Below are positions 2,983 through 4,798 of a DNA stretch of 5,037 nucleotides, one piece after another. The stretch's first letter is position 1, and every line of letters begins with the position of its first letter. This DNA is from a virus (lineage: Duplodnaviria; Heunggongvirae; Uroviricota; Caudoviricetes): IMG/VR virus record IMGVR_UViG_2548877009_000019, one strand, 5' to 3'. Made by a program: the position numbers and the translations under genes. A model generated the notes under the pieces. It ran no database searches, was not told the DNA's origin, and saw nothing but the letters and a program-made list of their open reading frames with translations.

Positions 2983-3162
2983 TTATTCTGATTCTTTGGT
3001 CTTGCGGCGCTGGCGGCGTTTGATTTCGCCGCGCATGGCTGCGTTTATAAACTGCCCCGTGCTTTCACCTTCTTCTTTCACGTTCTCCATGCCTTCAATA
3101 ATTTCATGGGCAATACGTGCAGTTACAGATTGTGATTTTGCATTCTTTGGACCCGTTGCCAT
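2983..3162 (-). CDS. Small basic protein (59 aa, MATGPKNAKSQSVTARIAHEIIEGMENVKEEGESTGQFINAAMRGEIKRRQRRKTKESE); candidate regulator
   Basis: Start placed at the internal ATG (plus 3160-3162) because it has a strong Shine-Dalgarno GAGGGG with 6-nt spacer; the longer track ORF to 3201 has none. Divergent from the plus-strand operon across an operator-like region. Lys/Arg-rich C-terminal tail. Regulatory role is inference. Confidence 0.55.
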   Translation of the reverse strand: MATGPKNAKSQSVTARIAHEIIEGMENVKEEGESTGQFINAAMRGEIKRRQRRKTKESE

Positions 3163-3182: not shown

Positions 3183-3264
3183 GGTGTAAGACAATATACA
3201 CGAAAAAAAAATATTTTGAAGGGTTGACGTGTAAGACACCGTTATTTTACATTGTGTCTTACAC
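3183..3264. promoter_or_regulatory. Divergent promoter/operator region with GTGT-N3-ACAC palindromic motifs
   Basis: GTGTAAGACA (3184-3193), GTGTAAGACAC (3229-3239) and its exact inverted copy GTGTCTTACAC (3254-3264). A -35-like TTGACG at 3224-3229 overlaps the second motif; the -10 is poor (TTACAT/TACATT). Confidence 0.5.
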
Positions 3265-3290
3265 CTTGTTAATGCAAGGTACAGAAAAGA

Positions 3291-3356
3291 CGAAACCCCG
3301 CAGTGCTGGAACACATACGGGCTTCTAACCAACAACGTAAACTAGGAGCCGTTATG
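3291..3356 (+). repeat. Leader module copy 2: hairpin AACCCCG / CGGGCTT (17-nt loop), CTAACCAA, Shine-Dalgarno AGGAG, ATG (3354)
   Basis: About 90% identical to copy 1 over roughly 40 bp. Outer stem positions differ from copy 1 in a way that keeps pairing (A-U pairs replacing G-C pairs) with one internal mismatch. Confidence 0.7.
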
Positions 3357-3537
3357 GTTGCTGTAAATCATATACCACACCTTGTACACACACAAACTGC
3401 CTTTGTGTGGCGTTTTCTGGCACTGAATATCGGAGAAAAAAACCAGTTGATCGCCAGTGTCGAAAATAGCTATGATTCCCGCGCACCTCATAAAACGGGT
3501 GCCGGGATTGGCGTCCTGGGCAAAACTGAAGCGCATA
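3354..3537 (+). other. P3-paralogous short ORF (MVAVNHIPHLVHTQTAFVWRF...) with no in-frame stop before the 3538-3560 terminator; leader peptide or decayed paralog
   Basis: Good Shine-Dalgarno (AGGAG). N-terminal roughly 30 codons are paralogous to the 3723-3911 ORF with several synonymous differences. The frame runs without a stop through the terminator to 3911, so the 202-aa track ORF is unlikely to be one real protein. Confidence 0.3.
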
Positions 3538-3560
3538 ACACGCGCCCCGCGTGTTTTTTT
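3538..3560 (+). terminator. Strong Rho-independent terminator (ACACGCG-CCC-CGCGTGT followed by a T-run)
   Basis: Perfect 7-bp GC-rich stem (3538-3544 and 3548-3554), 3-nt loop, T-tract through 3560. Plus-strand specific. Lies inside the 3303-3911 track ORF and upstream of the small-ORF operon. Confidence 0.75.
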
Positions 3561-3657
3561 GTGCCGCATAGTCACACCTTATCAATGGTGGGCTGTACGG
3601 GGGCGGAGCAATCCGCGCCGGTTTCTTCAGTGTCCGGTTACGCCAACCCTGTACAGT

Positions 3658-3725
3658 CCGCCACCAGCGAAATTGGCGTTTCCGGTGGCGGTTATCTTAA
3701 CCACACTGAGGAGGCTGCCAACATG
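3658..3725 (+). repeat. Leader module copy 3: hairpin CCGCCACC / GGTGGCGG (18-nt loop), TCTTAACCAC, Shine-Dalgarno GAGGAGG, ATG (3723)
   Basis: Perfect 8-bp stem at 3658-3665 and 3684-3691. Same architecture and spacing as copies 1 and 2 but with a completely different stem sequence. Confidence 0.6.
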
Positions 3726-3911
3726 GCTACTATCCCTACCCTTGTACATTCTCAAACCGCCTTTCTCTGGCGCTTTATCATCTTTGGCGCGTCAGAACAT
3801 CAAATCATCCACGTAACCGCCTGGACGGAACGCGAAGCGCGTAGCCGTTGCCCGTCAGGTTGTGTTGCTGTATTTGCCGCCCGTATTCGTCAGGAGGTGC
3901 GCCATGATTAA
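3723..3911 (+). CDS. Hypothetical small protein (62 aa, MATIPTLVHSQTAFLWRF...); first gene of the small-ORF operon
   Basis: Strong Shine-Dalgarno GAGGAGG (3708-3714) with 8-nt spacer. Stop overlaps the next start (ATGATTAA). Paralogous N-terminus to the 3354 ORF with synonymous third-position differences. Confidence 0.6.
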   Translation: MATIPTLVHSQTAFLWRFIIFGASEHQIIHVTAWTEREARSRCPSGCVAVFAARIRQEVRHD

Positions 3912-4116
3912 TCTGTCACTTACTGACCTTAACCGCATTCAGTTTCGTGAGAAATTCACAGGGCAGCTACTGGTCAATGTGGATAAAGGTCGCGTGGTGT
4001 GTAATTACCACTTACCAGATGAAGCAATTGTCGCCACAAGGGAATCATTACAGGAAATCACAAAACGTGCCGGAATGATTAACACGAATATTCAGGGGAT
4101 GCTTTATGCACAATAA
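3904..4116 (+). CDS. Hypothetical small protein (70 aa, MINLSLTDLNRIQFREKF...)
   Basis: ATG at 3904 preceded by GGAGG (3893-3897, 6-nt spacer). Translationally coupled to the genes on both sides. The track's upstream extension to 3862 has no ribosome-binding site. Confidence 0.65.
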   Translation: MINLSLTDLNRIQFREKFTGQLLVNVDKGRVVCNYHLPDEAIVATRESLQEITKRAGMINTNIQGMLYAQ

Positions 4117-4366
4117 AACCACACCGGACGCAGCCGCCGAAGCCATCAAAACGCTGATGCACGCGCTGATTGATATTTCTGTTATCGCGGACAGGGCACA
4201 TAAGCACGCCACCAGCGAAACAGAATATGCCGGGGCTTTCGTTCCTCACTCACTGGCTGTTATGCAATTTAGTGCTGATATGGCACTGAATGAGGCTAAA
4301 ACCATCCTGATTACTGATTGTGAAAATGGGGGGGGGTTATGCTTGATGATCGTTTTAATTCCCTGA
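4106..4366 (+). CDS. Hypothetical small protein (86 aa) whose C-terminus runs through a G9 tract
   Basis: ATG at 4106 preceded by AGGGGA (6-nt spacer); overlaps the upstream stop. The 3' end depends on the G9 tract at 4328-4336, so its true C-terminus is uncertain. Confidence 0.55.
   Translation: MHNKTTPDAAAEAIKTLMHALIDISVIADRAHKHATSETEYAGAFVPHSLAVMQFSADMALNEAKTILITDCENGGGLCLMIVLIP
4328..4336. repeat. Homopolymeric G9 tract at the junction of the 4106 and 4339 ORFs
   Basis: Nine consecutive G counted directly. One extra G would fuse the two ORFs in frame; one fewer would truncate the upstream ORF just before the downstream ATG. Confidence 0.9.
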
Positions 4367-4572
4367 AACAGGAATTTTCCGGCGTTCCTGATGATGCGGC
4401 TGATGCGCTTTCGTCAATGCCAGAACTTATTAGAGCGGCTTTTTTCTTACTTTCCACGAGAGAATATAAATCAACGGGGCTTGATGTACTGAATATCGCC
4501 GCCGATTATGCGGAATATGTGGCAGAGGCTCGTTACAGAAGAAAATTTCCTGAGGATGTAAACCATGCGTGA
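4339..4572 (+). CDS. Hypothetical small protein (77 aa, MLDDRFNSLKQEF...)
   Basis: ATG at 4339 immediately after the G-run, which can act as a Shine-Dalgarno. Stop overlaps the next start (ATGCGTGA). May be the C-terminal part of a fusion with the upstream ORF if the G tract is really G10. Confidence 0.55.
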   Translation: MLDDRFNSLKQEFSGVPDDAADALSSMPELIRAAFFLLSTREYKSTGLDVLNIAADYAEYVAEARYRRKFPEDVNHA

Positions 4573-4798
4573 TATTTACCACGAAACAACAGATCGCGTA
4601 TTTCTTGCACTTTCTCACAGTGAAAATATGATGGAAATATTGCGCATATGGCTTGAAACACTTGGCGACAATGAACGCGACAAACAAAAATCAAGAATTG
4701 CCACGGCATTAATAACGCTTCTTGAGCCTGTAATAAATGAGTTGCAGGAAATAGAGACATTACACGACCAGTATAAAGCGCCCCACACCGGAGAATAA
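4565..4798 (+). CDS. Hypothetical small protein (77 aa, MRDIYHETTDRVF...)
   Basis: ATG at 4565 preceded by GAGGA (4552-4556, 8-nt spacer); 8-nt overlap with the upstream gene. Antisense ORFs in this region (4430-4687, 4533-4844 minus) have no such signals. Confidence 0.6.
   Translation: MRDIYHETTDRVFLALSHSENMMEILRIWLETLGDNERDKQKSRIATALITLLEPVINELQEIETLHDQYKAPHTGE

Follow-up and report, generated by a model that had tools for sequence, protein, structure and literature searches.

Organization of the locus

The DNA analysed here, referred to as the window, is a stretch of 5,037 nucleotides (nt) from the Caudoviricetes record IMGVR_UViG_2548877009_000019 of IMG/VR. A preliminary description had drawn attention to two open reading frames (ORFs), starting at 3354 and 3723, whose encoded peptides begin in a similar way, and had proposed that a small protein is under selection there. 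Between the two starts we found two RNA genes listed in Rfam, isrK and C4, and directly behind them an intact gene that matches the Icd-like (host cell-division inhibitor) family. The following features were annotated in this region:

3354-3437, plus strand: copy 1 of the peptide start, with the Shine-Dalgarno sequence AGGAG at 3344-3348, ATG at 3354 and 28 codons (MVAVNHIPHLVHTQTAFVWRFLALNIGE) cut off by the cassette that follows
3389-3409, plus strand: perfect 8-bp hairpin inside copy 1, CACACAAA-CTGCC-TTTGTGTG, then GCGTTTT (terminator-like match)
3447-3476, plus strand: predicted internal isrK/C4 promoter, -35 TTGATC, 18-nt spacer, -10 TATGAT (consensus scan)
3483-3559, plus strand: isrK-type small RNA (sRNA) with the sites a1 (3504-3514) and b1 (3523-3531); Rfam RF01394, 66 bits versus a gathering threshold of 50, E=5e-13
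3538-3560, plus strand: isrK intrinsic terminator (terminator scan)
3581-3668, plus strand: C4 antisense RNA (Rfam RF01695), with b' loop TTTCTTCAGTGT at 3622-3633 and a' ACGCCAACCC at 3640-3649
3672-3714, plus strand: downstream C4 targets a2 (3672-3681) and b2 (3703-3714); b2 includes the icd Shine-Dalgarno sequence GAGGAGG (3708-3714)
3723-3911, plus strand: Icd-like gene, 62 amino acids (NF033153); copy 2 of the peptide start is its first ~26 codons (3723-3800), and its stop overlaps the next ATG at 3904

The similarity of the two starts is genuine, as had been claimed. The nucleotide repeat (3371-3416 versus 3731-3776) shows 76% identity at a spacing of exactly 360 nt, and the peptide alignment covers 27 residues, 15 of them identical and 20 positive (BLASTP E=2e-9, single comparison). 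Both starts had been correctly recognized, but they do not open separate ORFs: no stop separates 3354 from 3723, which are in the same frame, the stop-free stretch extends from 3303 to 3911, and the ORF that starts at ATG 3354 runs to 3911 and has 185 codons. This shared frame, the two RNA genes between the copies and a third copy at 2534-2655 (see below) were not part of the preliminary description.

The isrK-C4 cassette between the two starts

The isrK match is full length (model positions 1-77 of 77) and is overlapped by a weak match to c4-a1b1, the 'a1,b1 target' model. Transcription from the internal promoter is predicted to start near 3483, which is position 1 of isrK, and a -35/-10 pair was found at the same position in cassettes of otherwise unrelated sequence. 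C4 was also detected over its entire model (positions 1-87 of 87) with 77.6 bits at a gathering threshold of 45 (E=1.5e-14), and its minimum free energy fold has a value of -46.9 kcal/mol. Within C4, position 3585 holds an ATG like that of orf45 in Salmonella Gifsy-1 (see below), which shares its frame with the starts at 3354 and 3723.

Pairing energies were calculated for short-oligonucleotide duplexes and compared with 500 shuffles; full-length RNAduplex runs gave uninterpretable long-loop structures. The b' loop of C4 and b2 form 14 consecutive pairs over the icd Shine-Dalgarno sequence at -20.1 kcal/mol, a value that none of the 500 shuffles reached. For a', the energies were -17.8 kcal/mol with a1 and -15.0 kcal/mol with a2. 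We then considered 33 distinct b' loops, each representing a cassette type, from the IMG/VR loci L003-L122. Pairing with the b2 of the same cassette averaged -14.6 kcal/mol versus -6.7 kcal/mol for foreign b2 sites, and the own b2 ranked first for 26 of the 33 loops (Wilcoxon p=2e-10); likewise, own b1 sites averaged -11.0 kcal/mol versus -6.7 kcal/mol for foreign ones (p=1e-6). The b' loop of the window finds its best partner among the 33 cassette types in its own b2. This covariation of loop and target is strong evidence that the pairing is functional.

The same set contains at least 33 different C4 b' loop sequences, each with a matching b2 and b1 of its own. This diversity implies that enterobacterial prophages and satellites have many RNA-based immunity specificities, and these would form a ready set for testing RNA-based heteroimmunity among such elements.

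The 360 nt of the cassette comprise the internal promoter, isrK, the terminator, C4, a2/b2 with the Shine-Dalgarno sequence, the ATG and ~26 icd codons. The cassette is self-contained and occurs beside unrelated genes. It also brings its own icd start (MATIPTLVHSQTAFLWRFIIFGASEH); a start of the form MAT(I/V)PT is common to cassettes that precede other, presumably Rha/antirepressor-like proteins. Since MAT(I/V)PT is shared across cassettes with different downstream genes, the first codons travel with the cassette. The isrK-C4 cassette behaves as a portable unit that carries the first codons of its target gene, so recombination inside icd can add or remove it.

More than one cassette was seen in two other loci. 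Locus L019 (IMGVR_UViG_2671181028_000005) contains three tandem C4 cassettes with different loops at 9728-11072, 656 nt apart, and the gene after each of them presumably encodes a Rha-like product. In locus L100, two C4 cassettes lie 847 nt apart.

The Icd-like gene and the origin of the two starts

ORF 3723-3911 matches NF033153 over the whole profile (positions 1-48 of 48) with 57.2 bits at a cut-off of 25. In intact relatives, codons 22-57 contain 8, 9 and 20 variable sites at the first, second and third codon positions, respectively, and the ratio of nonsynonymous to synonymous proportions (pN/pS) is 0.24; overall, pN/pS among icd relatives ranges from 0.24 to 0.34. A value of 0.06 for the motif codons 12-21 was not used, as the loci had been retrieved with a pattern that fixes these amino acids and biases the ratio downward. 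The icd gene is under purifying selection in relatives. In line with the earlier proposal that the 3723 ORF is translated, the profile match and these ratios show it to be a real protein gene.

The family had not been recognized in the preliminary description. By its NF033153 match, the gene at 3723-3911 belongs to the Icd-like family; in RefSeq, the 3354 ORF is a pseudogene with the name 'ash family protein'. An AlphaFold2 model (mean predicted local distance difference test score 72.7) places AFLWRFIIF in strand 1 of a small beta-beta-alpha-beta unit; Foldseek found no significant counterpart of this model in BFVD (best E=0.07). The Icd protein of P1 is reported to be a soluble FtsZ binder with an active core of residues 12-51 (PMC11897509). 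Activity on FtsZ and division is known only for P1 Icd.

We compared copy 1 with the 97 IMG/VR loci retrieved by a degenerate DNA pattern for HTQTAFxWRF. The gene is uninterrupted in 85 of these loci: a start of the 3354 type (MVAVNHIPHLVHTQTAFVWRFLAL..., with the same leader and Shine-Dalgarno sequence) continues into ...SAGESQIIHVTAWTEREARSRCPSGCVAVFAARIRQ and yields one icd gene of 65 amino acids. The interrupted arrangement of the window occurs in 12 of the 97. In a MAFFT alignment with the uninterrupted locus L142, the window differs in length by exactly 360 nt, seen as a gap; identity is 89% over the leader and codons 1-27 and 96.6% over the next 1200 nt. The 85 contiguous loci and the 360-nt relation to L142 indicate that copy 1 corresponds to the first 28 codons of one icd allele. 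We interpret it as the 5' stump of a second, long-diverged icd allele. The cautious wording of the preliminary description, that 'at least the ancestral 3354 ORF' is translated, agrees with the finding that the 3354 start opens an intact icd allele in those 85 loci.

Taken alone, copy 1 gave no match to the NF033153 hidden Markov model (HMM) when the window fragment of 42-43 amino acids was searched. In relatives of 202 amino acids, a longer upstream fragment (...WRFIALSTAQPRVITIEATSEQEARQ joined to KNQLIA...) matches positions 1-32 of 48 of the Icd HMM with 31-39 bits. The copy 1 fragment holds only strand 1 of the Icd structure model. Among the interrupted loci, copy 1 occurs as six unique sequences that vary at only six sites, all of which are also polymorphic in intact alleles. 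Two uninterrupted alleles, L143 and L180, read HTQTAFVWRF directly followed by IAFGASD(H/R)QII and thereby resemble a chimera of copy 1 and copy 2, which fits the product expected from loss of the cassette via recombination between the icd 5' repeats.

The 16-codon blocks 3372-3419 and 3732-3779 encode IPHLVHTQTAFVWRFL and IPTLVHSQTAFLWRFI. They differ at 13 nucleotides, four of them at first, one at second and eight at third codon positions (binomial P=0.035; P=0.10 when 23 codons are used). According to the Nei-Gojobori method, the proportions of synonymous and nonsynonymous differences (pS and pN) are 0.64 and 0.15, the synonymous divergence (dS) is ~1.5, and the ratio of nonsynonymous to synonymous divergence (dN/dS) is ~0.12 for 16 codons and 0.24 for 23. 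The pairs CAC/CAT, ACT/ACC and CGT/CGC had been correctly listed as synonymous, and ATA/ATC and CCA/CCT can be added. The low dN/dS and the eight of 13 differences at third positions do show constraint at the amino-acid level, as had been proposed.

A dS of ~1.5 indicates that the two copies are old alleles and not the outcome of a recent duplication. The synonymous excess is best read as a record of purifying selection on each allele as a functional icd gene. Having been acquired in this way, the bias between the copies carries no information on current selection on the 3354 ORF. The view that the motif is not a mere DNA repeat was right with respect to constraint, but the alternative had been wrongly chosen, as the repeat owes its existence to an RNA-gene cassette that separates the two icd 5' ends.

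Comparison with known systems and proposed function

In P1, C4 blocks the expression of ant in the c4-icd-ant operon (PMC8198154). The window resembles immI of P1 and P7 (a1 b1 - c4 - a2 b2 - icd - ant) in the order of the parts, in downstream targets that cover the icd ribosome-binding site, in an icd gene with overlapping downstream genes, and in the predicted combination of a repressor-controlled outer promoter with an inner one; both the C4 covariance model and the Icd-like HMM find their match in the window. It differs from immI in four respects. The window belongs to a satellite-like island (int, alpA, RepA helicase and a capsid gene), whereas P1 is a plasmid prophage; no ant gene follows icd, as judged from a Pfam scan of the next two genes and from RefSeq names; the cassette is preceded in frame by an icd 5' stump with its own ribosome-binding site; and the a1/b1 region is an isrK-type terminated sRNA.

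Gifsy-1 of Salmonella offers a second parallel in its isrK-orf45-anrP region (Hershko-Shalev et al. 2016, PMC4825925). There, too, isrK has its own terminator, read-through leads into a C4-like RNA (STnc1160), and an ORF in the same frame begins at an AUG at the 5' end of the C4 element. This ORF, orf45, starts inside C4, is translated and is needed downstream, although its amino-acid sequence is not conserved (PMC4825925). In contrast to the window, orf45 ends at the start of anrP (AUGA) and the downstream gene is an antirepressor, whereas the frame of the window continues without a stop into icd and reaches upstream to ATG 3354. The immunity region of satellite phage P4 (CI RNA, seqA/seqC), which the IsrK authors cite as a structural analogue (PMC4825925), shares with the window a processed antisense RNA acting on repeated sites up- and downstream in the same transcript. 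P4 CI differs in that it works through premature transcription termination, according to PMC4825925.

Region 3354-3911 is probably an antisense-RNA control module of the P1 immI type inside an icd gene, and the two peptide starts are probably two icd 5' ends. The locus represents a regulatory module of a catalogued kind, not a new family of small proteins, and the island is an ordinary one; its local peculiarity is that the control module sits in frame inside another icd allele. Both alleles would have evolved as real icd genes before recombination set them side by side, which would account for the synonymous excess. By analogy with P1 and Gifsy-1, C4 would be cut out of read-through transcripts from the internal promoter, and pairing of its b' loop with b2 and of a' with a2 would make the icd ribosome-binding site inaccessible. 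With this site hidden, icd and the following overlapping genes (ATGA-type, 3904 and 4106) would be shut off. The same analogy suggests that a1/b1 of IsrK are decoy copies able to titrate C4. On transcripts from the repressor-controlled promoter at 3224, copy 1 would be present together with a strong ribosome-binding site of its own.

This explanation is built on direct observations of the RNA genes, of their base-pairing, of the 360-nt relation to uninterrupted loci and of the membership in the Icd family. Several points weigh against it. Pairing of b' with b1 is weak in the window: 38 of 500 shuffles attained its energy of -11.8 kcal/mol. The promoters, the processing of the RNAs and the translational coupling are proposed from consensus matches and from P1 and Gifsy-1. 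Copy 1 shows no visible decay: a strong Shine-Dalgarno sequence and the ATG are retained, the length of the insert is divisible by three and the frame is open for 185 codons, which would also fit a functional read-through ORF. Finally, the cassette may have been inserted in the interrupted loci, or it may have been lost from the others by recombination between icd 5' ends, which the chimera-like alleles L143 and L180 fit.

The Ash reading frame

The 3354 ORF matches Pfam PF10554 (Phage_ASH) with 63.4 bits at a gathering threshold of 26. The match covers residues 40-133, i.e., nt 3471-3752, and therefore spans the -10 box of the internal promoter, isrK, C4, a2/b2 and the first ten icd codons. 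'QLIA' and 'YD', which are conserved in Ash proteins, coincide with the -35 (TTGATC) and -10 (TATGAT) hexamers. Since the match is the translation of the isrK/C4 RNA region, it is no proof of a functional protein domain; the Ash family looks largely like the translation of a promoter and RNA genes, with most of its conservation stemming from RNA and promoter constraint. Literature searches on Ash and Icd yielded only other, unrelated meanings of the words and no paper on Ash as a protein with a function. Databases hold many proteins with this in-frame fusion, listed as 'Ash-like/Icd-like' (the 186-amino-acid P0001 is 99% identical), and phrog_29966 spans the whole fusion. A genome contig search with the 185-amino-acid fusion yielded a single Shigella locus.

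The frame is nevertheless open more often than others. In 45 clusters of C4 loci sampled without regard to ORFs, the Ash frame contained zero stops over ~82 codons in 23 clusters, compared with 5 and 6 for the other forward frames and 0-4 for those of the reverse strand. In the isrK segment upstream of the orf45-type ATG, it was stop-free in 21 of 30 clusters versus 8 and 8. Most enterobacterial loci have the Ash frame fused in frame to the downstream gene, while distant loci have an ORF of 45-68 codons like orf45 of Gifsy-1.

Alternative explanations

These counts bear on an explanation that concerns present function and is compatible with a split-gene origin, namely that the 3354 ORF is a working pass-through ORF. 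Ribosomes on transcripts from the 3224 promoter would translate through the cassette into icd, prevent, in cis, both termination and the folding of C4, escape the C4 block and make a 185-amino-acid Ash-Icd fusion. We regard this as unlikely. AGGAG is located 5 nt before ATG 3354, the 185 codons are free of stops, the insert is exactly 120 codons long, and every junction variant seen in relatives keeps the frame (for instance, L074 lacks 12 nt and the 202-amino-acid forms have 16 more codons); yet the fused proteins were collected with a fused query, which favours in-frame junctions. The excess of open Ash frames (23/45 and 21/30) comes from clusters that share ancestry, so that the counts are not independent, and over all clusters the segment upstream of orf45 occurs in 15 distinct lengths, of which 6 are divisible by three, near the chance level. 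Translation of orf45 across a C4-like RNA, required for translation downstream in Gifsy-1 (PMC4825925), is a precedent; in the loci studied here, however, the amino-acid sequence across the cassette varies freely, the conserved 'residues' coincide with RNA stems and promoter hexamers, the ORF contains an intrinsic terminator, and the arrangement is absent from most relatives. A selected 'translational override' along the in-frame chain from ATG 3354 through the stump, isrK, the terminator, C4 and a2/b2 to icd is a doubtful extension of this idea: once the repressor is lifted, ribosomes from 3354 would melt the terminator and the C4 fold and free icd from its blocked ribosome-binding site. If true, one locus would combine an antisense-RNA lock with a ribosome-driven bypass, and the override would explain why the 'Ash' frame stays open across two RNA genes in many enterobacterial elements, despite being largely promoter and RNA genes in translation.

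The remaining explanations concern the repeat itself. It is improbable that it is kept for a nucleic-acid function (an RNA or protein binding site, a hairpin or an attenuator) with the peptide likeness being secondary. The perfect hairpin of copy 1, followed by GCGUUUU in the RNA, would suit such a function: of 36 unique alleles, 35 have an identical stem, five synonymous positions included (the exception, L126, has one G-to-A change), while both third positions in the loop vary, and it may be an attenuator or a translation-sensitive structure. However, this contrast amounts to 5 versus 2 sites in closely related sequences, and copy 2 lacks the hairpin, both arms being altered without compensation. 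The duplex screen of C4 and IsrK against either copy revealed no strong pairing and nothing convincing except a b-like match of 7-9 nt to the C4 b' loop at 3415-3432, at the end of copy 1 (GCACUGAAU; -13.4 kcal/mol, 1 of 500 shuffles), which could be due to chance; uninterrupted alleles carry GCACTGAGT at the equivalent position, resembling b2 (CACACTGAGG). Moreover, the copies differ mainly at third codon positions, the mark of a protein. A recent local tandem duplication that drifts neutrally, with the third-position excess arising by chance, would produce a direct repeat with a 360-nt period, and the binomial P values of 0.035 and 0.10 are modest. We rejected it as highly improbable, since synonymous divergence is near saturation (pS 0.64 versus pN 0.15), both allele types are found separately in other elements, and between the copies lies a self-contained, portable cassette that elsewhere stands beside unrelated genes. 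Equally hard to sustain is a new family of small membrane-associated proteins, which the hydrophobic and aromatic AFLWRFIIF had suggested in the preliminary description. This candidate was rejected on account of the match to the curated family NF033153 and of a hydrophobic run of ~11 residues, which could not cross a membrane at that length and forms a beta strand in the model. As P1 Icd binds FtsZ (PMC11897509), a membrane role is unlikely for the motif.

Early promoter, leader and a third icd remnant

Upstream of copy 1, the following features were found:

3224-3264, plus strand: predicted early rightward promoter, -35 TTGACG (3224-3229), -10 TACATT (3248-3253) (consensus scan)
3296-3321, plus strand: leader RNA hairpin, CCCCGCAGTG...CACATACGGG, then TCTAACCAA
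2534-2655, plus strand: third, shorter icd remnant with leader hairpin, Shine-Dalgarno sequence, ATG at 2609 and ~15 icd codons (MAIKEHSLLFIHTQT); it stops after CACACACAAAC

The early promoter is enclosed by an inverted repeat (GTGTAAGACAC at 3229-3239 and GTGTCTTACAC at 3254-3264), and an additional half-site is located at 3184-3193. The motif GTGTAAGACA(C) occurs three times in 3184-3264, two of the copies forming the inverted repeat that brackets -35 and -10. The inverted repeat and the half-site are likely the operator for the divergently encoded YlcI/YnfO-family protein (2983-3162, minus strand).

The leader hairpin CCCCGCAGTG...CACATACGGG is conserved in relatives and is followed by UCUAACCAA, and a second copy lies in the window at 2548-2574. 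An alignment of 52 unique leaders revealed a compensatory swap in the inner stem, GUG/CAC to CUG/CAG. The hairpin had no match in Rfam. The third remnant (2534-2655) shows 73% identity to 3282-3401 and 78% to the leader and icd start of L143; its translation had no family match in profile searches.

Genomic setting

The window is 99.9% identical to a segment of E. coli chromosomes beside roxA; 1,639 E. coli genomes gave a match, and strain JNE120442 (NZ_AP027254, 1265850-1266601) is one carrier of the island. The host element is a satellite-like island at this site, similar to phage-inducible chromosomal islands (PICI-like). The other genes of the window are:

1-1230: integrase
1605-1793: AlpA
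2298-2477, leftward: small repressor-like gene, Arc-like
2983-3162, minus strand: YlcI/YnfO-family repressor-like gene (NF041551, 64.7 bits)
3904-4116, 4106-4366, 4339-4572 and 4565-4798: genes after icd (hypothetical proteins in RefSeq)

The rightward operon lies downstream of the leftward genes, and the RefSeq record extends it to RepA helicase, SSB, PerC and a capsid gene. In RefSeq, the region studied here comprises a pseudogene named 'ash family protein', flagged 'missing C-terminus', and after it WP_235176115.1, 'host cell division inhibitor Icd-like protein'. A Pfam scan of 3904-4116 and 4106-4366 gave nothing significant, and hence no antirepressor match for these two genes after icd. 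The genes after icd overlap or abut, with an ATGA-type overlap at 3904 and more overlaps at 4106, 4339 and 4565. This arrangement of gene starts would be consistent with translational coupling of the entire early operon to icd.

Two minor observations were made outside the icd region. In the AT-rich spacer after int, 1381-1462 has a weak Rfam match to the Brucella sRNA BSnc120 (27 bits versus a gathering threshold of 114; E=0.0035); this hairpin-plus-U structure is most likely a terminator or a chance match. Furthermore, a 75-nt repeat (2230-2304 versus 2915-2989, 84% identical) covers the 3' ends of both small leftward repressor-like genes. The regulatory module consisting of repressor, divergent promoters, leader and icd start is thus duplicated in the window, and the 75-nt repeat together with the third icd remnant shows that the region was built by repeated recombination.

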